NCBI GenBank assembly: GCA_964016885.1
Contig: OZ024744.1
Span: forward strand, 17,050,001-17,114,000
Source of the DNA: Eledone cirrhosa
Taxonomy: Eukaryota
Direction of reading: 5' to 3'
Length of the DNA stretch: 64,000 nucleotides
Every line of letters begins with the position of its first letter. Within the stretch, counting starts at the first letter, position 1. A program made the position numbers and the translations under genes. The notes under the pieces were generated by a model that worked only from the letters and a program-made list of their open reading frames with translations, searched no databases and was not told the DNA's origin. Below are positions 15,872 to 53,696 of this stretch, piece by piece.

Positions 15872-16023
<152 letters not shown>

Positions 16024-16502
16024 TTGAGGTTGGTAATGGCACATGGAATATATAAGAGACAGAATACTTTTTTGTGAAAAAACATAATTTTATAAGGTAA
16101 GGAAATAATAAAGGGTATAAAAAATGACGGGTTTCGATGGGTCTGCAAAAGCCATATTTTCAAATGTTGATTAATATTAAGAAAAATTAATAATACGAAG
16201 AGTTAAAATTTGAGACTTGAAAATTCAAGTATAAAATTCATTGTGGGATTTCATAGCAGTTTTCATCTAGGTAGCAACAACAGGTTGACTGCTGTGTCCC
16301 TTTCTGGTAGTGAATGAGAAGTTATTTGGGGTGTGGGTTATTTTATAAAGGTCAGATTTAGCAATCACCAACTGGCCAGTGAGGGGTGGAAACAATATAC
16401 ATACACATATCTTCCTGTGATGGGTAGGAGAGTGGAGCGTGATAGAAAAGGATTTAGTGCACTTACACCTATATATACACACATACCTTCATCCACACAT
16501 AC

Positions 16503-16535
<33 letters not shown>

Positions 16536-16614
16536 TATATATACATATACACACATACATACACACAGACATACATATACATACACACATACACACACAC
16601 ACATATATATACAT

Positions 16615-16671
<57 letters not shown>

Positions 16672-16710
16672 TATATATACATACACATACATCCAGATAC
16701 ACACATACAT

Positions 16711-16804
<94 letters not shown>

Positions 16805-16953
16805 CCCAACCACAACACATACCACCCCCACCATCACATTCACCCTCATGAAACAACAAGCTACAGACCCACACGCAACAGACCAACAAAATATAATCAC
16901 ACACAAAACAACATTCCTTTTTTAGGGAAAAGCCTGAAATACCAGGATACTCG

Positions 16954-19229
16954 ATGGCCCCCCCTCAGGAGAAACCAAAAATAATCAACCTCTCAAAGAC
17001 ACCTCTAACCAACACACAAATCAACATTTTAAGTAAGGGCCTGAAATTTACACCTACACCACGTAAACCAAACTTCCCCGAAATGAAGGATGACATCATG
17101 GAATACTGCCGAAAGCTGCGACTAACGGAATTCTTCCACAACGACACCAACACTGAAGACGAATCACTGGTTAGAAATAAAAGCAATTTCTGCCCACAAA
17201 AGGGAAGAAATAAAGCACTGGACACGTACTGCGAACACATCACCAACTTTCCCTATGAAAAAATTACAAATAAACACACGAAATCAAACCTATCTACACA
17301 CGAATGGGAAGAATTATTCACACTTAGAAACAACCCTGAGATAACTATCAAAGAAGCCGATAAAGGCAGTACTGTTGTCATTATGAATACGGACTACTAT
17401 AGGACCCTCGCACTTAACATTTTAGAAAACAACACATACTATGAAAAAACAGAAAACTACAAACACACCAAAACAATGGGAACCTTTTGACCTTACTGAA
17501 TAAATACCGCAACAGCTTAACCACAAAAGAGTTTAACTATATAAGCCACTTCAAATGCAATACAAGCTCTTTTTACGGCTTACCGAAACTTCACAAATGT
17601 AAACCCATAAACGATGCATGTGGCACCTCAACCAACAATTACATTGAACTAACACCACCAGAAGACCTAAAACTCAGGCCAATTATAGCAGGCCCTACAT
17701 GTGAAACCCACAGACTTAGCAACTTTCTGGACATCCTACTGAAACCCTTTCTACAACATATACAGAGCTACATACGAGATGACCTTGACATGCTGAAACA
17801 CCTCCCTAAAACAGTAAGTGCAAATACAATTCTTGTCTCCTTTGACGTAATAAACCTCTACACAAACATACCTCACAACTATGGAATAACAGCAGTCCAA
17901 TACTGGCTTAACACACACCCATCAGAAATACCGACACGCATCAACACAGATTTTATCACTGACGGACTCCGCTTTATCCTACAAAATAACTACTTCACAT
18001 TCAATGGTTCAACATACAGACAAGTATCAGGTACGTCAATGGGCACGAAAGTAGCACCCACATATGCCAACCTAGTCATGGGATTCCATGAACAACAAAT
18101 ATACAGTCAGTCCCTTCTCTTATTTGGAGACACTTTCCACACACACCTCAAAGCCAATTGGAAAAGATATCTAGACGACTGCTTTATCCTATGGCAAGAA
18201 GACATGAACTCACTTACTACGTTTAAAAACATGATAAACAACATAGATAATAACATACAATTCACAATGGAATCCAATCCTAAGGAATTAGCCTTCTTGG
18301 ATATTCTCATCTCTGTAATAGACGGGAAATTAGATACAGATATATTCTATAAACCCACAGATTCCAAGCAATACCTCTTTTTCACATCAAGTCACCCAAA
18401 ACATACAAAACTTAACATTCCTTACAATTTGGCCAAACGTATATGTACCATAGTATCAGATCCACCTAAACGGGAGCAAAGACTAAAGGAACTAAAAGAC
18501 ACCCTTATCTTAAGAGCCTTTCCACTTGAAATAATCAACAATGGAATAGACAGGGCAAAACACCTAAATCCCCATCAACTTAACAATCCAAAACAGAAAA
18601 CCACACTCAACACCCTGCCATATGTATCCACTTTCAACCCCAGAAATACCGAAATGTTTGATCACCTACACAAAAACCTCCCCATCCTACTTAAAGATGT
18701 AAAAATGAAGTCTATTCTTGAAACACACAAGATCCTTAAAAGTAAAAGACAACCCAAATCACTTAAACGCATTCTCACTGGACCAAATATACCCAAACCA
18801 ATCCTCAACCCTACAGTTACCAAATGTGGTAGAACAAACTGTGGAACGTGCCTCTACCTCACTGAAGGACAAACATTTACATTCAAAGATGGCCAAACAT
18901 TTACAGTAAAAAACAATTTCACCTGCAACTCGGAGAACTTGATTTACGCAATAACTTGCGGTGGGTGCAAACACAACTACATAGGACAGACGGGCACCTC
19001 ATTACGCAAAAGAATGACCATCCACCGCCAACAAATCCGGGACGCTAACACAAGAAAAATCCCCTTGAGCAGCCATATTGCGAACTGCGCAGGAATGATA
19101 CTACCCAACTTTAAAATCTTCCCCTTCTACAAGTGCTCAGATTCGTTCACACAGCAACAAAGAATAAACAAAGAAAATCTATTCCTTAACAAATTTAAAC
19201 CAAAACTAAACGGGTTATCACCCCAATAG
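16954..19229 (+). CDS. PLE reverse transcriptase-GIY-YIG endonuclease, one frameshift at ~17487
   Basis: [79 protein letters not shown]...YIGQT. Confidence 0.92.
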
Positions 19230-19827
19230 AATTGTCATAAAATATAAACACACATACGCACGGAATCACTACTATTAAAGACCAGAGACCAATTCTGTAG
19301 AATCAGGTTTATTCATTGACAGACCATGCCTTTGTGTGACCAACACATCCATGTTAAACCCTGCACGTGCACACACATATATCTATATATATATGCGCAC
19401 ACAGAATTCACCACTGTCGGTTGCGGGGCTCAATCTACATGAAGAACTCAATGTGATCAGAATGACTTGTATTTTAATTTCACTGCCCCAACTTCTTATA
19501 TTATGGAAAAAATATATGTGTCTGTATGTATATATAAATATATATATTTGAAGGCCATTTCTCTGTGTGTGGGTGTATGTGTATATGTGTGTGTGTGTGT
19601 ATGTGTGTGCATGTGGATGTATGTATTGTGTGTGCGTGTGTGTGTGTGTGTGTGTATGTATGTGGGTATCTGGATGTATGCGTATGTGTATATATATATA
19701 TATATGCGTGTGTGTGTGTGTGTGTATATATATGTGTGTGTATGTGTGTATATGTATGTGTGTGTGTGTGTATGTTTGTATGTGTGTATGTATATATATA
19801 TATGTGTGTGTGTGTGTGTATGTGTGG

Positions 19828-19907
<80 letters not shown>

Positions 19908-19946
19908 ATGTATGTGTGTATCTGGATGTATGTGTATGTATATATA

Positions 19947-20011
<65 letters not shown>

Positions 20012-20496
20012 ATGTGTATATATATATGTGTGTGTGTGTATGTGTGTATGTATATGTATGTGTGTATGTGTGTATGTATATGTATGTGTGTGTGTATGTA
20101 TGTGTGTATATGTATATATATATATATATATATGTATATGTATATGTATGTATGTGTGGATGAAGGTATGTGTGTATATATAGGTGTAAGTGCACTAAAT
20201 CCCTTTCTATCACGCTCCACTCTCCTACCCATCACAGGAAGATATGTGTATGTATATTGTTTCCACCCCTCACTGACCAGCAGCTGGCCAGTTGGTGATT
20301 GCTAAATCTGACCTTTATAAAATAACCCACACCCCAAATAACTTCTCATTCACTACCAGAAAGGGACACAGCAGTCAACCTGTTGTTGCTACCTAGATGA
20401 AAACTGCTATGAAATCCCACAATGAATTTTATACTTGAATTTTCAAGTCTCAAATTTTAACTCTTCGTATTATTAATTTTTCTTAATATTAATCAA

Positions 20497-20540
20497 CATT
20501 TGAAAAGATGGCTTTTGCAGACCCATCGAAACCGGTCATT
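20497..20540 (+). ncRNA. Hammerhead, U3:A8 core variant, in pLTR (mirror copy 16121-16168)
   Basis: TTGAAAA-gatgg...ccatc-GAAAC-cg-GTC; stem I weak. Confidence 0.55.
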
Positions 20541-20841
20541 TTTTATACCCTTTATTATTTCCTTACCTTATAAAATTAAGTTTTTTCACAAAAAAGTATT
20601 CTGTCTCTTATATATTCCATGTGCCATTACCAACCTCAATTTTCTCTATAACCTTCGTTTTGTGTAGAAAATTACACTTTTCATATATATATATACTCCA
20701 AATATTTGTCGAGTGCTCTTATATCAGTTATAAATATTTACTAGTTGTAACCCAACAATTTTAAATATAACTTTCCACATATATATATGTGTGTGTGTGT
20801 TCGAGTGTGTGTTTGTATTTGTGTGTGTGTGTGCGAGTGTG

Positions 20842-29966: not shown

Positions 29967-30249
29967 TTTATATATATTAACATATAGATAGATAGATAGA
30001 TTGGGAGATAGATAGATTTCTTTATTTGCCACAAGGGCGCACAAGAAAAGGGGACAATACAAAGACATGCCGGGGATTTTACATACAGTCGTGTAAAAAT
30101 ATAAAACAAACAATACAACAATCGAAATCCCCAATAGGGGGAAGCTCCACAAGTGGGTTGTATAAAACCCCGTCGATAGAACAACCTCAACTTCAGGAGC
30201 GTGTTGTGCAAGTGCTCCTTTCTTCCTTTTGCTCGGTTCTTTAACCTAC

Positions 30250-33200
30250 AGGTTTATATACAGAGAAGGCCCAATCACTCGGGCCATTTTCGCTTCATTC
30301 ACCCACATGTCAGTAAATTTACTGGCGTGCAGTGCCTCTCTCTCCACTCTGATTCTCCTTCTAAAGTGATACTTAAAGAAGGGAATGAGTTGTTGTCCGG
30401 AGTGAAATGCATATGTCCTCAGTCCTGTCAATCTCGTCCACCATACAACTTATTTCACCATAGCCGCTGTACAGAGGAAAACCGCCTCTCTCTCATTTTT
30501 GAAAGAGGCTGGCGGTTTGATCCTTACTATGGACTCGGCAGTCAACTGGATTTGTCCCATACGCGACAGCAGTTCTGCATAGTTCCACAGGTCGGTTACG
30601 CCCGGGCAGTGTACAATTGCGTGCAGGACTGTTTCAATGTCCTGCGCGCATCTTGGACACGTCCTCTCGGAAGGATCCTTGCCGAGCCGTCCGTGCCTGT
30701 AGATCTTGTCACGAACCGGTAGAGCTTCTCGGTAGCACTGCCAGGCCAGGGACCTCTGGAAGTTGTCCATAGGTCCCGGGCAGAAAGTCCTACCAAACAG
30801 ACTGGTGAGCTCATCGTCTTCGACGCCCAGAGTCTCTCCGAGCACGTCGTCGCCCTTGTAACCTACAATCCTCTATAGAATATCGAAGTGGAGTCTCCGC
30901 TGATTGCTGCGCCCACTTGCCAGGCGCCCATCGTTTTCGGTCTTTTCTTCACCCATGACTGCAGCTCTGTCAGCGAGACGAGCTGTGGGAAGGCCTGTCT
31001 CACAAACGGTGTCCACACTGGTTGGGGGTCGATGAGGAATAGCTGGAGATGCCGCAACCTTAGCGCATGTTTGCACATCATCAGTCACGACATTCCCAGG
31101 TGCTGGAAGGGTGCTGACAACAGATGGATCTCCTCACCAGCGGACCCTGCTTCTTCCACAGAAACTGGAAGAGCATGCGTTCTATCTTGGCGAGGTGTTC
31201 ACGGGGACAAGGCACGACAGTCAAGCGGTAGTAGATGAAGGACGCTATGAAAGTGTTCGCCACCTCCGCTCGACCTTTCAAGGACAGTTTGCACTCTGCC
31301 CACTTCTGGGTAAGCGCAAACTCCTTAGCCGTGATCTCGTTCCAGTTTTTCTCCACCTTGAGGTCTGGACCGAACCAGACCCCGAGCAATTTCACCGGTC
31401 CGTCCAGCGTCCAACGACGCTGTTGGACGTCATCGGTTTGCCTCTCCACGTACCGAGTTGCAAACCGACAGACTTGTCCGGGTTTAGTTTTGCTCCCGTC
31501 AGCGTTTCGTATTATTTCAGTAAGTTGCCGATCACCCCGATTTCCGAGGTGCTCGACACCATTACCGTCATGTCGTCGGCATAAGCCGACGCCGCTTTAC
31601 GCAGTCCCGGTTCTAGAGGGATGCCCTGCAACAGCTCCAATTTCGTCAGTAGTGGCTATAGAGTCAATACATACAGAATAGAGGAGAGAGGGCACCCCTG
31701 TCGAATGGAACGGGTGATTGCGAACGGTTCCGATAGGTAGCCGTTCACCTTGACGCTCGACAGGATGCTGGTGTGCATCGCTTCGATCCAGTCGCTGAAA
31801 ACGGGACCAAAATCGGCCGCCTTGAGAACCGCTTCCAAGTATCGATGGTCGACCCTATCGAATGCCTTAGACTGCAACAAATTGATCAACGCTCCACCGA
31901 AGCCGGGTTTACTATGATGTATCGCATGAGGTGGAGGTTTTCGTGTATGGTCTGGTCGGGATTGCACACGTTTGCGCTTTCCCTACCAGGTTCTCGACGA
32001 CGAGCGCGAACCCCGTTGCTAAAACCTGGGCCAAAATCTTTAACTCTGTTTTGAGCAGAGTTATGGGCCTGAAGTTGTTAATTTCGTCCCCCTTGTTCTC
32101 ATCTTTCCTGATCAGCGTTACTACGCCCTTGCCTGCAGAACTGGGAATTCTCCCGTTCTGCTGCCAATTACAGTAGACGGCTTCGAGGACGTCAGAGAAC
32201 AAGTCCGACATGCCTATGTAAAACTCATAAAATAGACCATCTAGACTGGGTGACTTGCGTTTTCCCGCAGCGGCCCAGAGCGTCCCGTATCTCAGTGTTC
32301 GTGATCGGTCTTTCGCAGAACTCGGCGTCCGTGTTCGAAAGACGCGGCAGCCCGTCGAGGTATGAACTAAAGTCCATTGCCCCGTTCGACTCACCGTTGT
32401 TCTGCTCAAACTCTCGCGCAAAGTGCTGCTGAAAGGCCGCGCACTTTTGCTTGGGACCAAGTAGCACGCGTGCGTTTTGATCTTTCAAAGACTGAATCGT
32501 GGACTTGTTGCCACTTTTTGCCTCCGCCACTCGGGCCCAGCTGACCATTTTCGCGCATTCGTTTCCTAGAGCACGTGTTTTGCTTCTGACCACACAGCCT
32601 TCGTGTTTCGCATCGAAGAACTGGTCGAGTGCCGTTCTCGACGCTAACACTCTAGCCGCGTTTCCACTTCTAAGAGTCTCCTCTACCTTGGCTACTAGTT
32701 CTCTTTCTATTTTGTTTTTATCTAAGGCTAACTCTCTGCTAAACGCTATCGATTCTATTCTAATTGCTTTCTTGAGAGAGTATCACCATCTATTGTTGAC
32801 GATGGCTCCTGTTAACTGTTGCTTGACTAGTCTGCTTATCCGTTCACTGTAAGCTTTACGTGCCGGCAACGACACGTTCAGCTTCCAGTATCCGGGTCCC
32901 TGTCTATGTGTTCTATCACGGTTGACTAAGCAGACGACTAATTTGTGATCTGAATAGGCAAACATGTGCATTCGTGGACAGCTTAACATCTCCTTGTCCC
33001 TTTCTCTAATGAAGAACCTATCTAAATACGATCTAGATGTCCCTCTGCGGTTTGCCCACGCCACTGTGGTGCAGTCGGGAAAACCAGTCGATACCTATCG
33101 GCCAGTTGGAATTGGCCGATTAAAGTTTTGAGGCGGTTTCACCCCCCTCTACTGGGACATGTTCCCACATAGTCCCATCGTGCATCTAGGATAGCATTCC

Positions 33201-33626
33201 AGTCCCTCACTAAAAGTAAGGAACGAGACGTTCCCAGAAAAGACTCTAGACGCTTAAAGAAGTCTGGCCGTGATTGCGATTGCCCGGTCGGGGTATAAAC
33301 GGCCACCAGTCTGAAGGCTCCACCTCCAATACTGTTCACGTCTAGGACTACCAGTCTACCCTCCGGGTCCATGTGTACTTCGACGTCCAGGTTCTTCCGA
33401 AACATGACAGCCCCCCCCCCCCCCATCCACCTCCTGGCTGACAGAGAGATGCGTAGATCTCAAAGTCGTCGAAGATGGGGGTTAGTTGTTGCCTGTTGTG
33501 GATCCTGGACTCGGTGATGGGTATCACATCCATACCGTGTGACCTAACATCGTTTAAAAGTTGGCCCTGTTTCCAGGGCATCTCTAGGCCACGCACATTC
33601 ACGCTTCCAACTCGTAAACTAGCCAT
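30250..33626 (-). pseudogene. LINE ORF2 (APE-RT), multiple frameshifts
   Basis: Colinear ORF fragments from 33348..33668 down to 30246..30431. Confidence 0.9.
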
Positions 33627-33668
33627 GTTGGTGAAGAAGAGTTGGAGAAAAATGACTAAAAGGTGCAC

Positions 33669-35441
33669 TTACCTTTTCGTTTCCTGGAGATCGAGCTGTT
33701 CAATCTCCATTTGGGTGCTGGATGGGGTGTTGGGTGGGGTGGGGAAACATTTTAACAGGACGCGGTTGATGGGTTTCTGGAAGGGGTTGCCCACGTCATG
33801 TGAACATTTATTTTTTAGGTCACTATAGGTTTCCATAGAAACCCTTATAAGTTTAAGGTGGGGAGACGATTCTGCCTTGACGAAATTTTTGCCCTCTGTC
33901 TCCACCTTGGGGTTTTAGGAATTGACCTCCATCAGACTCTTGTTGTTTGTGTTAATGCATGCGTATTGTTGTTTGTATTTTTTTTGTGTTGTTTTAGTTT
34001 GTTGTTCGTCTGGGAGTTTTCTTTTTATGGTGGGTGCTTGTGTTTGGGGTGGTGTTGGTGTTGGTTTTGCTGATAGGGGGATGTTTGAGTGTGGTGTTGT
34101 TAATGTTGTTGTTTGTGTCTGTGGTTGTGTGTTGGTGTTGGTGATTGGAGTTTGGAGGTTTTGTGGTGTCTCTTTTTTTTTTGATTTCCAAGGCTCTCCC
34201 TCTTCACTTAAAGAAGAAGCAGCCTCATCTGTCGTTGAATAATCATCGTCAGGAGTGTGGGGTAGGGGTATGTTGAGTGGTGGTGGTGTTTCTGTGTGTG
34301 TATTTGTGGTAGTGTTTGATGGAATGGGATGAGGTGGGGCTGTTCTCTTCAGGGGTGTTGTCTGTGTTTTTTCTGTTGTTATTGGTTGAGTGGCTGTTTG
34401 TTTTGATGTGTTTGCTCGTTTCGTCTGTTGTTTTACTTGTGGTGGTGGTTGCTTTGGTGTTGGTAATAGAGTTTTTTTAATGATCTTGTTGTGGTGTGTT
34501 TGTGAAGGACAGGAGGATTTCAGGTGTGCTGTGCTACCACAGCGAAAGCAATGAAATTTACGCCCTTCTACCAAAAGGTTTATACTGTTATTGTCGTCGA
34601 AGACGAATTTTTTCGGGTATTTTGGAGATTCTCTCCGGCCTAATTTGCATCAGAATCTCCAAATCAGTACCCGCCCACCTTTGTCTAATAGACTTTCGTA
34701 TCGAAAGAATCATATCTGTCTCTGGCTCTACGAAGCCAGCCAAGATCCACCAGATGTTAATGTTTGGTGGTATATTTTTTATTCTTATTTTTTGTGTCCT
34801 TTTTCCCATGTATGTAGGGAAAAAGGTGAATGCTCTTGACACCATTGGTGTTACAGAATGTTTTTGGGCGAGTGTTTCGCTTTTAAACAGTACGGAAACA
34901 CTTCCGTACTGTTTTCCTTGCTGGAGAAAGTCAATATTTGCTAGAATTTCCTTCAAGGTAGCTTCTATATCTCCTTGACTAACAAATATCGGCTTTCTCG
35001 ACTGTCTCTGCTTTTATTTCGAGGGGTGAGTTCATTCTAAACCCACCCTTGTCTTCGAAAGTTAAAAATGTTCTCCCTTGCTGGAGCATTTCTCTTGCAT
35101 TGGAGATGTCAAGATTTATAAAATCTTGTTTTTTGTTCACTGTTTCAGCGAAATACATTTTTCTTTTTGTGTGGTTTTGCTGTTGTTGTTGTCGTTGTTA
35201 TCGTTGTTAGCCTCGGTGTTGGAAATCTCAATTCCTTGACGAGGTCAAACTTTATGTGTAGATGTATCTGTGGAATTGTTGATGTTGTCTTTTTCATGTG
35301 AATGTATGTTAATAAGTTTAATTCCTGTGTTTTCATGTGAGTTATTGTTATTTTCTCCGCTTCGACGGTAGAAATTTTAAAATCTTCAAGTGGTAATATT
35401 TGTTTCTCTTTGTTGACAGTCGTATCTATGGCGACGTCCAT
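33669..35441 (-). pseudogene. LINE ORF1 (zinc knuckle), disrupted
   Basis: Fragments 35145..35441, 34588..34956, 33915..34574, 33669..33905; similar to ORF 1028..1591. Confidence 0.8.
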
Positions 35442-36037
35442 ACAAGCAGAAGCAGATAGAACAACGATATCTGCCTCTTTCTCTCTCTTTTCTTTGTCGA
35501 CGTTCTCCAGCGTTCTTTTCGAGTTATTCCTGTTTTATAGTTGGCACAATTTGATTTTTTAAAACAACTTTTAAATTAAATTTTCGCCCCCAGAGGGGGC
35601 GAAAAATGGAATTACCACCCAGCTGACAATTCAACTTGGGGGTGAATCTACAAAATGATATGTTTTTTCAAACAATTTGTTCTGTTTTTCGTATACAAAT
35701 TTACAAAAAGTCTTACCTGCGATGTTCCACGCGTCAGGCAGATAAAGAGATAGATAGATACACAAACACACATACATAGTGATATTATCCTAAACGGACG
35801 GTAGTCCGTTTAGTAATATTGTTGTGGTCGTGTTTTCGTTGGCAATCGTCTGTTTACGACAGTACAGCGCGGCTCTACTTTATTTAACTGAGATAAAACT
35901 TATATGAGCATGAACAGTAGATCATTACGCATCTTTTGGCTTAAAAATCTAGAAATTTGGTCCAGCGGGAAAAAGTTTATAATCAAAGTTTGCTGATAAA
36001 TCTTGTGTTCAAGTGAGTGAGTAGTAAGCGCGACGCT

Positions 36038-36167
36038 GGGGGAGGTAATCCATAAATGACGAATTTTTTTCGGCGGAACTCTTGTGATTGTGATTACGTT
36101 AGTCAAATGTAGTCAAATCGCCGAATCCCCTCCTCCTAATTGACTACGTCATTTCTGAACGGCCCTA
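36038..36167. mobile_element. Possible small MITE remnant
   Basis: Imperfect TIRs GG..TCCATAAATGACG / CGTCATTTCTGAACGGCCC. Confidence 0.35.
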
Positions 36168-36720
36168 CTTGCGTCAGTGTGAAACATTACTTCACTTTTC
36201 ACTGCTAAAATGCTTTTTAAATACTTCGTTAAAAATTTATGTTTATTATCAAAGCTATTTTGTGTACCAATCTATCAATAGTTTGCGAAAATATAGGTAA
36301 ACATGTGAGTTATATTTTTTTTAATCGCATCGATCGCTTTGTCGCACCGACTGCGACACTGTCTGGCTGTCTGTCTGACTGACACCTATGTCGGACCGAC
36401 ACCTTTGTTCAAGCGGACAACTTTGTGTCACTGACACCTTTGTTCGTCCCGGCATCTCTGCGAAACACCGATGACAACAACCAGACCAAAATTTCACTTC
36501 ATTCTTCATTCTTCTTCAAGACCGATCGCCGACTGATCGTATCGGTTGCTCTTCATATACCAGGTATTCAACAGATAGTTTGCACTTCTAGTATTATTAA
36601 CAGTCGTGCGATTTTTTGTACCGATAGGTGCGAATAGTGCGCTATATTTTTGTACCGATAGGTGCGAATAGTGTACAATATTTTCTGAGATTTGCATCCA
36701 CTAATTTCGCATAATTAAAA

Positions 36721-37516
36721 ATGATGTTTCGCGGCTTTTTGATCGGCTTATTCATTTTTTCCATGGCACGGAAATGGAGTATTTCCATTTCGAATCAAAA
36801 CTTTTCACTAAAATCAGGCAATTGGACTGATCAAATTCACATTCATGCCAGTTTTTACAAATCCATAATTAGAAATGTGGCGAAATCGAATGACCAGAAG
36901 GTATAAAAATATTAATTCAAATGTATTTACTTATCATACCAACAAAAATACTTAGATATTTTGTATACCTGGGGCCCGTCAGGGCCAGGTAATGTTAATC
37001 GCCAACATTGTTATCTGTTGTTCTTTTGTGAAAGTATTGGTGGTTCATGTCGGCTCTAATGATCTGAATCCTCGTCGCACCGTTGGCACTACAAAGCTGT
37101 GCAAAGTAATACAATAATTTTTGCCCAAGTATTTTTTAATAATCATTTATTTGTAAATTAAGGTCAAAGTGCCCATTCGAGGCACAAAACTGGAAAAACA
37201 GGGGAAGAGTCTCTTTGCAAGGCTACAGAAAATAGCGGAAAAGCACCACTGTACACCCATTTTCTACAGTGGTGTCATTCCACGTCCACAAAGTGTAATT
37301 GAAAATAAAAATGACTTGGGCAAGAGAAATTCTTGTTTGGAAAAGTTTAATTACTGCATGAAAGAAATGATTCAAAAATTGAACTTGCCCAATCTTCACA
37401 ACATTGAAAATTGGTCAAAATTTGACAAATCTGACTTCAAACCACATATGATTCATTTGAGCAATGTTGGAAATCTTAAATTGACACAAATTTTTGCCAA
37501 TGTTTTTGCCACCTGA
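36721..37516 (+). CDS. Spliced SGNH/GDSL-fold protein (exons ..36900, 36956-37105, 37163-37516; start uncertain)
   Basis: Two phase-0 GT-AG introns (55 and 57 nt) join KSIIRNV / FCIPGAR / VVHVGSND / YSGVIPR / MIHLSNVG, i.e. SGNH blocks I, II, III and V in order. AATAAA at 37554. Confidence 0.72.
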
Positions 37517-37696
37517 TCCTTGTTCTATGGCTGACTGACTAATTTTGTGATTTAATAAAATGACATCATACTAGTAATGCACAATGGTCATTTTTAAATT
37601 TAAATTTTATTAAATAGTTGTTGCTTGCATTGCCTTAAAATAGTAACAAGAATGTACACATACTTTTTAAAAATACATCATTATCAGTCAAATCAG

Positions 37697-38162
37697 TCAA
37701 ATGTCACTAAAAACCAGGTGGTCGATAACAACTTCTATAAGATTAGTTACATGCTCACACATTGGATCACCTCTCATCAATGGCATTGGGTGTCTGAGAT
37801 AATCGTGGAGATAACTGATGAAGTCACAAATGAAGTGATGGTCTTCCAGTGTGATTAACTCCCTATATCCATTGATATATGTGATGGCTTCCGATTCATA
37901 GGTGCATTTTATGAGGAATTCCATGCATCCGATTTTCAGTGATTCAATGGGCATTTTATCAGAGATGATAAGGTATTTGACCACGTTTTGCTTTGTAAGT
38001 AAATTGGAGAGAATCACTGCAGTCAAAGTCATTTCTGTGCATGGGTTTTTTGCATGTCCATTCTAAAAAGTTAAAATGATAAAGTATTACTACTATATAA
38101 CTTACATCTATTGTTGTAACACCATTGAAATGCACAAGTTTCACCAATTCACTATTATGCAC
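37697..38162 (-). CDS. Small spliced ORF with BTB-C-terminal/BACK-like helices
   Basis: 43-nt intron 38063-38105 (GTAAGT...TTTTTAG) joins two ORFs in frame. LSNLLTKQNVVKYLIISDKMPIESLKIGCMEFL resembles the post-BTB helices of SPOP-type proteins. Confidence 0.42.
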
Positions 38163-38334
38163 TAATCATCTCAAATGCATTCATGATTTACTAGCTTTGT
38201 CATTAAGCCAGTTGCCTCAATTAGATTGCAACTATACTCAAAAGAACTTTAAAATGTCAATCACTTGTCAGTAATTCACTATGATCATTTAATTATTAGA
38301 TAGTTGTTGCTTGCATTGCCTTAAAAAATAGTAG

Positions 38335-39427
38335 ACCAGATAGAAAAATGCGTACAGCAAAAAAAAGTAATATTGTTGGAATATAAACCTTTAAAAATAC
38401 AGGACAAGAAACTAAAATTAAACTTTAAAAGAATAGGACAAGAAACTAAGATAAAACTTTAAAAGAATAGGACAAGAAACTAAGATAAAACTTTAAAGAA
38501 TTGGACAAGAAATAAAAAATTTTACAATAATATTAGTGGCAAATTTTTTTTATTCGTTTCCTGTGCTATGCCCCAGTATCTTCTTGATTAGTGCATAATA
38601 ATCGTCATGCTCTCATTGTGCGTTGCCCCTGAGCGGTTGGTTCTGGTTGGGGTTGGTTGGCTGACCAGTTCTGCTCCGTCAGAATGACCATTGCAAGAAG
38701 AATTGGCCGATGCAGCTGCAGGTCTCCTCCAAGAATGCACTTCTGGTCCCGCAACACCAGACGAAGATGGAGAAGACGACCGGGACAAGATGTCGACTCT
38801 GACCACCGACTACGACCCCTCCCTCAACCACCGGTCCTCCCTCCCTCTATCCCGTCATCCCTCCAGTCCTCCTGCTCCCCCTTCCTGTACCAGAAAGCTG
38901 TGGCACGCATTCATCTGGACTGCCGGACTTGAACTCAAGGACAAGATGCAAGGAGAAGATGGACTGGTTGGTCAAGATCAAGGATGAGCGGGACGACAAG
39001 ACCGTCCGCTGCTGCTCAAGATCTGTGCTCATGGTCCCATAGGTCCATTCACATTATGCATGACACATGAGGCGTGTCGCCGAATGATGAAATAGGGGTA
39101 TGGTTATGGCCCAATTGGTGTTCAAACCAGGATCAAATGATCCCCTCGGTCTGACGACGACCTCTGAATGTGGAACCCAGAGCCTATGAATGTGGAACTC
39201 GATTTTTTACCAATACAAATTTTGCCACTAATATTATTGTAAAATTTGTTATTTCTTGTCCAATTCTTTAAAGTGTTATCTTAGTTTCTTGTCCTATTCT
39301 TTTAAAGTTTTATCTTAGTTTCTTGTCCTATTCTTTAAAAGTTTTATTTTAGTTTCTTGTCCTGTATTTTTAAAGGTTTATATTCCAACAATATTACTTT
39401 TTTTTTGCTTTACGCATTTTTCCATCT

Positions 39428-39430
<3 letters not shown>
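38335..39430. mobile_element. Foldback/MITE-like element with ~215-bp TIRs built of ~32-bp subrepeats
   Basis: 38335-38550 is the reverse complement of 39216-39430; subrepeat AGGACAAGAAACTAAGATAAAACTTTAAAAGAAT; GC-richer core. Confidence 0.75.
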
Positions 39431-39460
<30 letters not shown>

Positions 39461-39464
<4 letters not shown>

Positions 39465-40517
39465 ATTTAGAGTTTTCACTCAGGAGTCAAATTCAATTAT
39501 TTAGCTCTAAGAAATATTTCTGAGCAGTACAATACAAGTTAATATAAAAAATATATGATCAACACTAATGTGTTTTTATTGCAAATTGACAATAATTTAG
39601 CCAGATAGAAATACCTTAATTCAAATACATATAGTCTACCTGTGTCGATCTAAAAAATAATAAATCTATACTCACAGACGTATATCGGCAACTGCCCTGG
39701 TGCCTAGACAAGTTTAAATTCCAAAATTCAAACCTTTTCAGCAGGTCAGTCCGAACTTCAAAAAATAAACCTGTTTCACAAAGGATGCTATACTATTGAA
39801 ATAATTAATTAATTGTGGAATAACTATTTATGAAATAATTATTAGTGAAATAATCAATTTTCTGTGATTCTCAATAGGCATCCAGAAAAATTAGAGTTAC
39901 TTCACCTAATTATTGTACTGCTCAGAAATATTTCTTAGAGCTAAATAACTGTATTTGACTCCTGAGTGAAAACTCTAAATTATATTATATCTGCTCCTTC
40001 GGTCGAGCTGAATGCGTAATCCCATATAAACGGCTGTTATTTCTAGCGCCATGAGTATGAGCCAGATTGCTGGGGAAAAAATCGTGTGCAAAAGCACATG
40101 CATTTGGCATACGACAAACCAGTCCTTAGATATTTCTCTTAGGTGAAGTAACTCTAATTTTTCTGGGTGCCTATTGAGAATCACAGAAAATTGATTATTT
40201 CACTAATAATTATTTCATAAATAGTTATTCCACAATTAATTAATTATTTCAATAGTATACCATCCTTTGTGAAACAGGTTTATTTTTTGAAGTTCGGACT
40301 GATCTGCTGAAAAGGTTTGAATTTTAGAATTTAAACTTGTCTAGGCACCAGGGCAGTTGCCGATATACGTCTGTGAGTATAGATTTATTATTTTTTAGAT
40401 CGATACAGGCAGACTATATGTATTTGAATTAAGGTATTTCTATCTGGCTAAATTATTGTCAATTTGCAATAAAAACACATTAGTGTTGATCATATATTGT
40501 TTATATTAACTTGTATT
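39461..40517. repeat. Interleaved inverted duplication A-B-A'-C-B'
   Basis: 39461-39534 inverts 39911-39984; 39531-39909 inverts 40139-40517. Confidence 0.85.
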
Positions 40518-40545
40518 TTTATATTTTTATATTAACTTGTATATA

Positions 40546-42844
40546 TGTTACCCTCTCCTCAACTTTCACTCACTCATTCTCTGTCACTACCTCTCCTCCT
40601 CCTCTTTCCTCCTCCTCCTTCAAGTTTGACCTGTGTGTAATTCTTTTCTCGCGCAGTCTTGACCGAGCTGGTATGAAATCTTTTTCTCTCTCTCTTTCGT
40701 CTGCGACTTCACAAAACTTGCGTTTACCGAATTCGTAGACCAGACCACCTTATCCTCTTCTTCTTCTTCTTCTTCTTCTTCTTCTTCTTCTTCTTCTTCT
40801 TCTTCTTCTTCTTCTTCTTCTTCTTCTTCTTCTTCTTCTTCTTCTTCTTCTTCTTCTTCTTCTTCTTCTTCTTCTTCTTCTTCTTCCTCTTCTCTCCTTT
40901 TTCTTTCTCTCTCTCTCTCTTTTTTCCCCCCTGTCGAACTTGGGCGAAATTCTTTCCTTGCTCACATTTCTACCAGGTTCGATGGTCTTTCGTCTCTTGT
41001 TCACGATTTCACAGAGTTTATATTCATAGAGATCTGGGACTTGTCTATTTCTACTCACTTTCCGTTGCTTAAACCCTTTTGTTGTTACTCTAGCGTCCCC
41101 CTTTATTTACGTGTCCCAACGACTTTTTTAGCCGTTGTTCGCACCAACCTGAGGCATATGGCCCTTAAAGCGATGAAATGCCGAGGACGGTTGGAGGGTC
41201 ACTGATGAAGGACTCACTTTTTCATATGTATCCCATTTGCAACGCCGCAGCTCCATTATTATCATCATATTTACACATATTACTTTTCCATGCTGCCTGT
41301 CTGTTTCGTTCCTTGCATCTTTACCACTTCTAGCAGTCTCCCTCTCTGTTACTCTCTCCTCAACTTTCACTCACTCATTCTCTGTCACTACCTCTCCTCC
41401 TCCTCTTTCCTCCTCCTCCTTCAAGTTTGACCTGTGTGTAATTCTTTTCTCGCGCAGTCTTGACCGAGCTGGTATGAAATTTTTTTCTCTCTCTCTTTCG
41501 TCTGCGACTTCACAAAACTTGCGTTTACCGAATTTGTAGACCAGACCATCTTATCTTCTTCTTCTTCTTCTTCTTCTTCTTCTTCTTCTTCTTCTTCTTC
41601 TTCTTCTTCTTCTTCTTCTTCTTCTTCTTCTTCTTCTTCTTCTTCTTCTTCTTCTTCTTCTTCTTCTTCTTCTTCTTCTTCTTCTTCTTCTTCTTCTTCT
41701 TCTTCTTCTTCTCTCATTTTTCTTTCTCTCTCTCTCTCTTTCCCCCTCCCCCCCGGCAAACTTGGGCGAAATTCTTTCCTTGCTCACATTTCTACCAGGT
41801 TCGATGGTCTTTCGTCTCTTGTTCACGATTTCACAGAGTTTATTATATTCATAGAGATCTGGGACTTGTCTATTTCTACTCACTTTCCGTTGCTTAAACC
41901 CTTTTGTTGTTACTCTAGCGTCCCCCTTTATTTACGTGTCCCAACGACTTCTTTTAGCCGTTGTTCGCACCAACCTGAGGCATATGGCCCTTAAAGCGTT
42001 GAAATGCCGAGGACGGTTGGAGGGTCACTGATGAAGGACTCACTTTTTCATATGTATCCCATTTGCAACGCCGCAGCTCCATTATTATCATCATATTTAC
42101 ACATATTACTTTTCCATGCTGCCTGTCTGTTTCGTTCTCTGTATCTTTACCACTTCTAGTAGTCTCCCTCTCTGTTACTCTCTCCTCAACTTTCACTCAC
42201 TCATTCTCTGTCACTACCTCTCCTCCTCCTCTTTCCTCCTCCTCCTTCAAGTTTGACCTGTGTGTAATTCTTTTCTCGCGCAGTCTTGACCGAGCTGGTA
42301 TGAAATTTTTTTCTCTCTCTCTTTCGTCTGCGACTTCACAAAACTTGCGTTTACCGAATTCGTAGACCAGACCACCTTATCTTCTTCTTCTTCTTCTTCT
42401 TCTTCTTCTTCTTCTTCTTCTTCTTCTTCTTCTTCTTCTTCTTCTTCTTCTTCTTCTTCTTCTTCTTCTTCTTCTTCTTCTTCTTCTTCTTCTTCTTCTT
42501 CTTCTTCTTCTTCTCTCCTTTTTCTTTCTCTCTCTCTCTCTCTTTTTCCCACCCCCGTCAAACTTGGGCGAAATTCTTTCCTTGCTCACATTTCTACCAG
42601 GTTCGATGGTCTTTCGTCTCTTGTTCACGATTTCACAGAGTTTATATTCATAGAGATCTGGGACTTGTCTATTTCTACTCACTTTCCGTTGCTTAAACCC
42701 TTTTGTTGTTACTCTAGCGTCCCCCTTTATTTACGTGTCCCAACGACTTTTTTTAGCCGTTGTTCGCACCAACCTGAGGCATATGGCCCTTAAAGCGATG
42801 AAATGCCGAGGACGGTTGAAGGGTCACTGATGAAGGACTCACTT

Positions 42845-42852
<8 letters not shown>
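40546..42852. repeat. Tandem repeat, ~800-826 bp unit, ~2.9 copies, internal (TTC)n
   Basis: Unit landmarks at ~40548, ~41349 and ~42175; copies near identical. Confidence 0.92.
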
Positions 42853-42882
<30 letters not shown>

Positions 42883-49694: not shown

Positions 49695-49922
49695 AATAAA
49701 CGAAGCTAAATTTAAAACATTTGACTTTTTATTTTACTTATTTTACTTATTTATATATATATAAATAAGTAAAATAAGTAAAATATTGTGTTTGCTTCTG
49801 TGTTTAGCAATTTTAGACAAGTCTATCATAGAAACAATTGTTAGACTGTAAATAAATTTCCTTGTTTGTATTGTCGACCATGTTATTCTTCAATTTTTCA
49901 ATTATATATATATATATATATA

Positions 49923-52900
49923 CTAGCATTAAAGCCAGGCGTTGCTTGTGGTAATTAAGTTACCAAAGTTAGGTTGCACCACACATTTTCTGGCAGCACT
50001 TTTTTGCCTGCCAGGCACTGGTTGAATGAAATGAAGACCTAGACTGCCGAAGCAGGAGCTGCGCCAGCAGTGACAATTGTAGTTTCGCCTATTGATATTA
50101 TCTCTGTGCAAAGAAGTGTTGAAATTTATTGTTTTACTGTACTTGCGCAGCACGCACGTAGACGATGCAAGCCGAACAACAGAGCTGCGATGGAGTTGTT
50201 CTGCATGACATGTTTTAACGGGGGAGGGGTGGAATGAGGGAACCTCAAACAGGTGCCTGAAAACATTGTCGAATTATGACAACCAAAAAAGAGGAAGAGG
50301 GGTCATTTTATGGTTGGTGCATCATGTACGTCGGACGTAGAAGATGAGCCTGCTGCTGTGCCGACGGGGGGAGGGAAATAGAGCTGAGCGGAGTCCAGGT
50401 GTTGGTGAAGTGTGAAGTAATTGCAGGGAACCGCCTACATATGTAAATCCCGTCATTAAAGCATTGTTCACTCTTTGAGAGTCGCACGGAGGTGAAATAC
50501 TAACTTGTCCACGGTCCTCCGAGGCCCACCAAACAGGGGTTGGTGAGGAGCAACAGCTGATATTTGAGTACGGTCGGAGTTGCAATGAAGCTTTGTAACG
50601 CCGCGAGAATCAGCCTTTGTACGCCCGATGGTGGGGAGTGTCCAGTGCACTGCAGTGAAGGTTAACCTACTTAGAAAGTACTCACGAAAAGGCAGAAAAC
50701 AAAAAGATAAAAAGTTATAAAATTAGGAATCAAGGTACTCCTATAAAACCTCCTTGTACACAATGTTTTTTGTTTTTCCTTGCGGGACGAACGCGAAATC
50801 ATCACTCTTGCTGCCGTGTCGGCAGCAAGAGTGATGATTTGGCGTTCGTTCCGCAAGGAAAAACAAAAAACATTCTGTACATGGAGGTTTTATAGGATTA
50901 CCTCGATTCCTAATTTTGAGCAGCCAACGTAAAGCTGACCATGAGAGAAACACGGCTCTCCCAAATGTATTCCCGCGACAGACAGTGTTTGCCCCTGCGT
51001 TTTGTTAATTGACATTGCGAAGCATGGCCTTACCGGGAACTGGGATCTCCGAAAGGTGAAAGGTAGGTCTGCTCTAGATGGGAAAAGATGCATCCTCGGT
51101 ATGAGCACAACCATGACCCGACCGCACCCTGTGATTATTGTGGCCTCAATCAGATTGGGAGCTAAGGACTTAACGACCAAACGTGTGCCATTGCATTGTT
51201 TCGGCGGAACCAAATTTCGAATGAGCAATATAGGTGCACCAACCTTCAAAGTTTCAAAATGTGTGGGGGTAATCCGGGGGGCTCAAAGGAATTTAGTACC
51301 TCTATTGGATAGTTGATGACGTCCTCGGGGTCAGGAGTTCTATAGATAGACTTATATACGTAGCCATCCGCAGGAATGAGTTTTAGCATTTGATCATTAA
51401 TATGGTTAACAGTTTTATTCCTCGGGGCCAGAATAGCCCTTTGGGCAAGGCAATCAATATTCTGATAATTTACTTGGAGATCTGGGAACACTGCATCCCT
51501 GAGATCAGAAGGCGTACTAACAACGGTACAAAGTGAGTCGATGACAATATTACCCTTTTCATCCCCGGGCGTTTTGCCTTCGCCAAGTGCAAGGAGGGTG
51601 TGAGAAAATGCTGCTGATGTGATATCACCTCGCATATGAGCACGCATGTTAGTTTGAAGTTTCAGAGTCTTCACCAGGGGCCACAATGCGGATAACTTAA
51701 GACACGCAGGTACTGCATCAGCTCTAGTCCCCTTGGGAATAACGGGAAGCGTTTGCCTGAAGTCCCCTGAAAGAAGAAGTGTTATGCCTCCCATGGGAGC
51801 CGTAGAGTCTTTGATGTCTCTCAGAGTTCTATCTAGCGCCTCAAGAGCACCTCTGTGGGCCATCGTCCATTCGTCCCAAACGATAAGCTTGCACCGTCTG
51901 AACACTTCTGCCTGATCGGAGCTCTTACTGCTGTTGCAATTGGGTGTCTCAGCCTTCGCTAAGTCAACCGAGAGCTTGAAATAAGAGTGAGCTGTCCTGC
52001 CGCCCGGCAACAAAGTAGCGGCAATTCCAGATGATGCCACATCTAAGGCAAAGCCTTCTGTTCGCCTAATCTCAGCTAATATTAATTTAGTGACAGAAGT
52101 TTTCCCAGTCCCCCAGAAGCGTCCAGGAAAAAAATCCCCCCAGCTTTTCCCCGGACAGAATTAACAACGGAGTTGTAAGCGAATTTCTGTTCTGGAAGGA
52201 GCTTTGGCTCATTCTCCGCTATGTACTGGGCAAGCTCGTCAACATTATAAGATGTCTCACGCAGAAAATCCGAAGACAGAGTCTTTGCGCCTTCCCGGTT
52301 TGTTGAAGGTAGGCCATACACCGCCAACGCACTACCGCCCATATCGAGAACAGTATATTCGATTTCAGGCAGTGCCCTGTTGTAAATGAGGTCACTGTAC
52401 CCGACCTCCATCGATGGGTTTAGCAACTGAGCGTGACATGTAATCTTTGTAGCTAAGCCATAAAGAGGTCTGATCATCGAAGTCGCACCATAGGAGTAGA
52501 ATAGCGAAAAGCGATCTTAGTCTTTTAGGAGATTTCAACAAAACGCTCTCTGCCATAGTGGCGCCCCATTGTAAATCATCCTCCAAAAGGCCACACCTAC
52601 AGCAGGCTTCCCGGAAAGTATCACATAATTCACCGTCAACAGTTCTTATGTCTCGAAAGCTTTGTGGGCCAAAAACCTCATGAAGGAGAAGGCGCAGGTG
52701 AAAACACTCATGCTGGTTGGGAGGTACAGTGTACACTCTTCCTAGACAACTGTCAAACTTGACACCAGGATGTCCTTCAACATCCTGACCTGACTTCCTA
52801 CGCACCAAAGTGTTGTTTGACCACACGTAGTAGGACGGGACTTGAGGAAATGAAAGTTTTTTGCAAATGTGTCAAGTTTGCAAAGCGTAAAAAAACCAGT

Positions 52901-53696
52901 CAAAGTTGTTTCTTTTGGATTGGCCGCCAAATGAACAGCAGTCTGTTCAGTAAAGTAAGCCCGCTGGCCGTTTTCCAAATGAACAGCTAGTTGTATGATG
53001 GCGGGGTGCCTTTGGTGAAGTGGAAACCCGAATATCCGCCAAAAGCTTCACCACTGCTGATATATCGACCTGCCAAGTGCTCCGAGACCTCGTCCCTGCT
53101 ATTGTGGTTTTGAAGGCCGAACATGGCAGCGTCGGAACCCTTGTTAACATATTTACATATGTACTTTATTGACTTCACTGAATGACAGAAGTCCACATTT
53201 ATATGAGCGGTGAAAGTTTTCATCAGAAATGGACAGTACGGGACCACCCACCTATTATCAACTTGATGACCCCGTAACGTCATAGTGAATCCACCGTTCT
53301 CAGGCCGCCATCGTCTGTACAGTTCTGTCTCTCACTCTCTGGCTCACTCCTTTATTTTTTCTCTGTCTCTCTCGCAAGGAAATTAGTAAGGAGTGGGTTT
53401 ATAAGCGTATATAAGAGAAGGATGCAGCATGTATTTTTTTTTTCAATTTTTAAGGGGAGTAGAGACGGAATCAGATTGTATTAGAGGGGTACAGCGTCAT
53501 GTATTTAGTTTCATCGATAATTTCCGTAATTGTGGGTTATTTTGAAATAAATAAATAGTCGTTGATCTACGTTGAGACCATTTACAACATTCTTACAGAC
53601 TTTGAGTCGAATCGGCTTGAAATTGTGCAAATGTATAAACATGGAACATGCACACACACACACACACAACAACAATCTGCCTTTTATAGATAATGA
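49923..53696 (-). mobile_element. Helitron, internally deleted
   Basis: 5' A|TC at 53696 and 3' ...GCAACGCCTGG...CTAG|T at 49923, inside TA runs; encloses helicase fragments. Confidence 0.88.
50741..53320 (-). pseudogene. Helitron RepHel, PIF1-type helicase portion, frameshifted
   Basis: DNRWVVPY, SIKYICKYVNKGSD, ASSGIAATLLPGGRTAHS, LLSGDFRQTLPV, FAMSINKTQGQT, HGQLYVGCS, TKNIVYKEVL*. Confidence 0.92.

Follow-up and report, generated by a model that had tools for sequence, protein, structure and literature searches.

A predicted intron-bearing SGNH gene in a repeated, possibly Helitron-type element of Eledone cirrhosa

Results

We analysed a stretch of 64,000 nucleotides of Eledone cirrhosa DNA (contig OZ024744.1, positions 17,050,001 to 17,114,000; hereafter the window, in whose numbering all coordinates are given). 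Our main reading, to which we assign a probability of about one half, is that a predicted two-intron SGNH esterase gene at 36721-37516 is carried by a non-autonomous rolling-circle element, and that the element family encodes an Asp-x-x-His motif whose Asp has been lost in the copy found here.

Contigs from four public sequencing runs (X1-X4; two samples of one study), which behave as DNA, were placed on positions 35300-40600. Such contigs drop rare variants, and the window may derive from another individual. In the gene region they are nearly unbranched, 160-480 nt long and 560-740 deep in X1-X3, and one-off junction contigs of the same runs have depths of 2.6-8. The SGNH gene sits in a homogeneous repeated element of ~3.64 kb that also exists in internally deleted forms. 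This does not support a single domesticated host gene; an earlier annotation made from the letters of the DNA (the sequence-only reading) had considered a domesticated non-catalytic SGNH protein. Judged by depth, the family likely comprises on the order of tens to hundreds of copies, the summed contig depth not being a copy number in itself.

Three deletion joints keep both ends of the element: 36062 is joined to 37335 and 36061 to 38192 in X1-X3, and 36059 to 37918 in X4. The depth of the left module in X1 (2324) is largely that of the full form (631) together with those of the deletion forms (622 and 643), and the right spacer reaches 2009. All three forms break within 4 nt (36059-36062), in the left arm of an imperfect inverted pair at 36051-36157 (arms 36051-36077 and 36131-36157, 70% complementary), possibly a small nested TIR element. 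The sets of deletion forms differ between the two samples.

The left end is fixed by an X4 contig that begins at 35787 and by a second copy whose flank before 35786 is different; the latter also points to dispersed copies. The contigs and the window show 192 differences. Five of the 40 displayed lie in the coding frame, namely one silent change and, read from window to family, V111D, L120P, H205D and S210N; the family allele carries Asp205 and Asn210. This pattern of differences fits a copy that has slightly decayed after insertion.

The neighbours are separate elements: a minus-strand LINE at the left, and other inverted and tandem repeats at the right. The LINE (30000-35500) is frameshifted, has a zinc-knuckle ORF1 and a zf-RVT tail, and resembles what we take to be the L1/Tx1 type. 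Directly left of the element lies a small high-depth repeat (35545-35786) that contains a hairpin-like part rich in GC and has a tail resembling a microsatellite. On the other side, a separate repeat at 39455-40517 has interleaved inverted arms of 80 nt (39455-39534/39911-39990) and 379 nt (39531-39909/40139-40517, 98%), and three tandem units of ~800 bp (40546-42856, 98-99% identity) each contain a (TCT)n run of about 50 units. Elsewhere in the window, a Penelope-like reverse transcriptase (RT) and GIY-YIG ORF (17445-19229) lies between long inverted repeats (16016-20647).

Removal of 36901-36955 and 37106-37162 on the plus strand yields a frame of 227 aa, from the ATG at 36721 to the TGA at 37514-37516. 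The sequence-only reading had proposed these two introns and had held that their removal restores all SGNH blocks in order; the GT..AG borders, phase 0, in-frame stops and 227-aa frame are confirmed, the full set of blocks is not. Predicted exon 1 (36721-36900, 180 nt), drawn from open frame and hydropathy, contains the ATG, a hydrophobic leader (hydropathy up to 2.5 across 11 residues) and a candidate nucleophile, either Ser44 (36850) or Ser48 (36862). It is followed by predicted intron 1 (36901-36955, 55 nt, frameshifting), by exon 2 (36956-37105, 150 nt), which carries block II with Gly66 and a block III of the form Gly-x-Asn-Asp with Asn95, and by predicted intron 2 (37106-37162, 57 nt), which holds two in-frame TAA. 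Exon 3 (37163-37516, 354 nt) comprises block V, which reads His205-x-x-His208 in this copy and has Asp205 in the family, and the stop; a candidate polyadenylation signal, AATAAA, lies 38 nt past it, at 37554-37559. The GC content of both intron-like segments is 18%, compared with 33-45% in the exons.

An open frame by itself is weak evidence for this model, because 60 GT-AG pairings of 40-120 nt likewise give one. When scored against an SGNH homologue described below (P0002), the two-segment model ranked first among 141 splice models, with a score of 138 (runner-up 132; mean 31 and maximum 67 in 1000 shuffles). Exons 2 and 3 were also the top two among the 828 stop-to-stop pieces of the window scored against the same protein. 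Least certain among the splice sites is the intron 1 donor (138, against 131 for a donor at 36877), and the 5' structure of the gene is uncertain. As P0002 was itself found with exons 2-3, scoring against it is partly circular, and the library-wide E-value given below is therefore the fair number.

Both intron-like segments are spanned by gap-free family contigs, and the whole family thus shares the frameshift caused by intron 1. Homologous copies that are coding through the segments, named in the sequence-only reading as the case against introns, did not appear. The contigs keep the segments as DNA would, and the missing of spliced joints in them is uninformative. Segments 36901-36955 and 37106-37162 are likely very short introns, and we predict that they are spliced.

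A full HMMER scan of 1,835,955,588 representative proteins with exons 2-3 gave P0002 as the sole match (E 1.5e-4), with identity at 49 of 197 columns spanning blocks II, III and V; the homology of the SGNH gene rests on this one protein. None of 1000 shuffles matched the score of exon 2 (90) or of exon 3 (79) against it. P0002 is a singleton SGNH protein from a contig of 2,190 nt, with a long insertion after block III, near the site of intron 2 in the present gene. It has GDSL, reaches an E of 9e-4 with Pfam Lipase_GDSL_2, below the curated cut-off, and has eukaryotic GDSL proteins as its nearest Atlas clusters (0.94). Its only match in the PDB is the ZfL2-1 ORF1 esterase 4C1B (E 2.4e-7), which is also the only PDB match of exon 2 alone, there non-significant (E 0.28). 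Gly66 of block II and Asn95 of block III align with both P0002 and 4C1B, and His208 of block V with P0002. The SGNH fold first proposed from sequence is supported, indirectly, by the P0002 match, the aligned blocks and the path from P0002 and exon 2 to 4C1B; alignment to P0002 supports blocks II, III and V but not block I.

Other searches gave the following. A Pfam scan of the three exons and the read-through returned no SGNH match and nothing above cut-off. None of 13 candidates matched in a word-index protein search of a 5.8-billion set with exons 2-3, and among 440 candidates of a word-index protein search only P0002 itself matched. Against the PDB, exon 1 and exon 3 each gave only four weak, unrelated matches.

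Block V reads HMIH in the window copy, as the sequence-only reading had seen, but this is not the family state: all four public runs carry G at 37445 (C37445G) at full depth, giving Asp-x-x-His. HMIH is peculiar to the window copy or its source individual. With the loss of Asp confined to this copy, the Oskar-like dead protein that had been read from block V loses its ground, and the view of the gene as dead or domesticated is weakened.

Block I is less regular. No similarity to P0002 is apparent in exon 1, whose score is reached by 483 of 1000 shuffles, and block I is therefore placed by position only; no register is significant or better than background. The YKS stretch named earlier as block I is one of three candidates, and mismatch counts and contig records over 36680-37042 identify it as the family state and not a lesion. 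Its Ser48, preceded by Lys, stands 15 residues before the block-II Cys, and Ser44, preceded by Ala, stands 19 residues before it, the corresponding distance being 14 in P0002 and about 19 in 4C1B. A putative third intron, from a donor at 36628 or 36662 to an acceptor at 36851, would give Asp-Ser in block I; this register has the best score, which is not significant (among 6,020 random windows centred on Ser, about 4% score as high), and the model has no clear start codon. Since SGNH nucleophiles usually follow Asp, Asn, Gln or Thr (PMC10792757), the non-canonical block I is a real irregularity, and a dead or weak enzyme is possible.

The furthest form of this argument keeps the mobile cargo but makes the SGNH domain catalytically dead or nearly so, binding only lipid or nucleic acid. 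We regard it as doubtful, though worth serious attention, and our estimate for it overlaps with the question of the carrier type. Gly-Asp-Ser is absent from block I in both exon-1 registers, whose scores lie at background, the YKS stretch is shared by the family, and the ZfL2-1 esterase is described as binding liposomes without need of its active site (PMC3905857). A dead domain fits less well with the Gly, Asn, Asp and His of blocks II, III and V that the family has kept, with serines at spacings near those of P0002 and 4C1B, or with the Asp-Ser that the candidate third intron would supply. The Oskar type of catalytic death, in which Asp replaces Ser (PMC10792757), is not seen here.

The whole element, likely a non-autonomous Helitron-type transposon, spans 35788-39429 on the plus strand. 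It starts with TC after an A (35787/35788), which fits the contig start, and its inferred end is CTGG before a T (39429/39430), placed by inverted-repeat symmetry and a (TA)n boundary at which the reads are cut. Directly behind the 5' TC lies a terminal DNA hairpin (35790-35813, plus strand) with a 10-bp stem and a 4-nt loop (-11.9 kcal/mol, z -6.5, none of 200 shuffles as good). That this hairpin belongs to the small left-hand repeat was ruled out by the X4 contig start at 35787 and the different flank of the other copy. A 13-bp asymmetric inverted repeat follows at 35812-35824 (plus strand), starting 24 nt inside the element end, and is the exact reverse complement of 39386-39398 (minus strand), which lies 31 nt from the inferred 3' end; only 7 of 15,097 random 60-nt pairs reach an inverted match of 13. 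A third copy occurs at 38366-38378, within the inner long arm described next.

The right 1.1 kb of the element consists of a ~215-bp inverted repeat round a spacer, and a family contig crosses 38336 into it. The inner arm (38332-38547, plus strand) has four 34-bp units and is 96% identical to the outer arm (39217-39433, minus strand), which forms the right end of the element. A 34-bp motif is present in two copies (97%), at 37607-37640 and 38293-38326; each adjoins a minus-strand poly(A)-like signal, and an X4 contig shows the motif in a third context. Metagenome contigs contained no match for the two motifs searched. Viral cargo, another possibility raised earlier, found no match in viral contigs by protein or by terminal motif, which is weak negative evidence.

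The element also has a convergent ORF of ~120 codons (37697-38062, minus strand); at 38050 the window copy is 5 nt longer than the family. A strong candidate intron of 43 nt (38063-38105, GTAAGT..TTTAG) lies upstream of it. We found no family or homologue for this ORF in Pfam, in the word-index search (0/3) or in the PDB (two weak, unrelated matches), and its single-sequence fold (pLDDT 41) is not informative. Three further ORFs in the element gave nothing above the Pfam cut-off (12 ORFs scanned).

The repeat family, its deletion forms and its terminal motifs agree with the proposal that the gene is DNA-element cargo. The ends, with 5' TC and hairpin, the 13-bp repeat and the inferred 3' CTGG, suggest a non-autonomous element of Helitron type. 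Canonical Helitrons are defined by TC, CTRR and the A-T site. The ends as placed here would combine these Helitron1 traits with traits of Helitron2. The Helitron1 hairpin of 16-20 nt about 11 nt before the 3' end is missing, no hairpin being found near that end (z -0.48, 51 of 200 shuffles as good). Of the Helitron2 or Helentron-HINE features, the element has an asymmetric repeat in the range of 12-16 bp (13 bp), with its 3' copy within 20-60 bp of the end (31 nt), and a terminal hairpin at one end only; it lacks a T-rich (TT) target, its flanks reading A and T, and a 5' repeat that starts no more than about 4 nt from the tip. No autonomous partner was seen in the window. A decayed canonical Helitron fragment lies on the minus strand at ~49920-53300 (PIF1 helicase, E 5e-54; apparent CTAG 3' end near 49924), and kinship between it and the element was rejected, as they have no end motif in common.

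A cut-and-paste TIR element, or a composite whose mobile ends are supplied by the 1.1-kb unit with the long inverted repeat (38332-39433), seems to us an unlikely carrier. Such an element would account for the ~215-bp arms at 96% with their internal 34-bp units, for a right end that abuts (TA)n and lacks a hairpin, and for an X4 contig that joins different sequence before 38301. However, the left end has no long arm, just the hairpin and the 13-bp repeat, and the inner arm has no TA flank. Furthermore, the left and right modules are similarly deep and 38336 is spanned by a family contig, so the modules appear to travel together.

That the gene belongs to a retroelement which retains introns or bears an esterase (Penelope/Terminon-like or Ngaro-like), with a non-autonomous part of it present here, seems rather improbable to us. 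Terminons are described as carrying GDSL esterases (PMC6431247) and Ngaro elements an SGNH ORF (PMC9210276), the nearest solved structure is a retroelement esterase, the 34-bp motif stands at two places, and a Penelope is present elsewhere in the window. Yet ORF, Pfam and Rfam scans of the element found no RT, recombinase, transposase or hammerhead (three weak Rfam matches, all below the gathering score), and repeat scans found no A1-B1-A2-B2 split direct repeats. The element therefore shows neither the split direct repeats, RT/RH and tyrosine recombinase of Ngaro nor the hammerhead ribozyme and linked RT of Penelope/Terminon. Its derivatives, moreover, retain both ends and are not end-truncated.

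Finally, it is very improbable that we are dealing with a LINE ORF1 copy in decay or with a single-copy gene domesticated by the host, with chance AT-rich insertions or ordinary host introns in place of the predicted ones: for all its similarity to the ZfL2-1 ORF1 esterase and its modest generic splice-site scores, the gene has GT..AG, phase-0 segments between its coding blocks that are common to the family, it is not an intronless ORF1 upstream of an RT-bearing ORF2 as in the LINEs with ORF1p esterases (CR1/L2/RTEX), there being no ORF2 downstream, the LINE next to the element lies on the opposite strand and has a zinc-knuckle ORF1 of its own, and the high homogeneous depth excludes a single-copy gene. 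The sequence-only reading had likewise argued from the introns that this is not a LINE copy, a view in line with the gap-free segments of the family contigs and the lack of RT in the element.

Discussion

In the mechanism that we propose for a non-autonomous Helitron-type carrier, a Rep-helicase encoded elsewhere would recognise the ends and copy the element as DNA, and copying as DNA would let the introns persist. The ancestor of the gene may have been a LINE-ORF1 type of esterase. Splicing of intact copies would yield an enzyme that slowly hydrolyses lipid esters, its nucleophile being Ser44 or Ser48, and that the hydrophobic leader might direct to membranes; by analogy with the ZfL2-1 esterase, membrane binding could take the place of slow lipid-ester hydrolysis. 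For the element, the enzyme would likely be a passenger or an accessory, a role that has been suggested for texim and for the ZfL2-1 esterase.

SGNH enzyme cargo in transposons is already known from fish texim, and the concept is not new. The texim genes are described as intron-bearing SGNH genes related to CR1 esterases and carried by or linked to Helitrons (PMC4021074). Like the gene of the present element, texim and teximY of platyfish and other fish are multicopy, contain introns, are Helitron-associated and have no RT. They differ in having 13-15 exons and few copies and in lying beside Helitron coding regions (PMC4021074), whereas the present gene, compared here by description, is divided into three short exons, and its carrier is a compact, non-autonomous element whose ends are defined and whose copies likely number in the tens to hundreds.

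The ZfL2-1 esterase works through a Ser-Asp-His triad and can bind liposomes (PMC3905857). Its structure, 4C1B, has the same block II/III pattern as the present gene, but there the domain, with its Gly-Asp-Ser, comes after the coiled coil of a LINE ORF1 (PMC3905857). The present gene is stand-alone, with predicted introns, a hydrophobic leader, a loop after block III that is ~20 residues longer, and the non-canonical block I. The OSK domain of Oskar also combines an SGNH fold with a departure from the block-I consensus, in this case with Asp in place of the catalytic Ser (PMC10792757). The present gene differs in that Ser candidates are present, the family keeps Asp-x-x-His and the gene is multicopy mobile cargo; the LOTUS domain to which OSK is linked was not found in Pfam scans.

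As for the carrier, Helitron2-type elements have been described whose hairpin is on the 5' side only and whose 3' repeat lies 20-40 bp inside the end (PMC5148889). Non-autonomous Helitron2/Helentron elements (HINE, DINE-1, FoHeli) share with ours the 12-16-bp asymmetric inverted repeats, the terminal hairpin and deletion derivatives with both ends (PMC4067079, PMC5148889), and FoHeli3-5 have, as here, a hairpin at the 5' terminus and none at the 3' terminus (PMC5148889). The present element departs from this group in its left repeat, 24 nt inside, in its A/T flanks and in inferred TC/CTRR tips as in Helitron1, as well as in its whole-gene cargo and the ~215-bp inverted repeat at its right end. 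A long inverted repeat of this kind is not described as a Helitron trait in the parts of the Helitron literature consulted here (PMC4067079, PMC5148889). One review regards the capture of whole genes by Helitrons as exceptionally rare (PMC6431247).

A search of the literature on Helitrons with SGNH, texim or GDSL, which covered few subscription papers and was made without Repbase, gave no compact non-autonomous Helitron-type element with an SGNH gene among the matches listed. A bolder interpretation would be that a LINE-type esterase was recruited, independently, by a rolling-circle element whose ends are a hybrid of Helitron1 and Helitron2, and that this element added introns of ~55 nt and a membrane-targeting leader and keeps the gene intact with its partner ORF across a recent burst of copies. 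We hold this to be speculative and on balance unlikely. If true, it would provide a second, independent Helitron-SGNH pairing beyond fish texim and would mean that the use of lipid esterases for crossing membranes or cells extends to DNA transposons.

SGNH esterases recur in unrelated mobile elements, namely LINE ORF1, Ngaro, Terminons and Helitron-linked texim. Genes such as the one described here escape ORF and Pfam scans, and the reading of a single copy can mislead about catalytic death. In the present family, near-identical copies with and without the gene coexist, which makes it a compact test case for expression, activity and selection.
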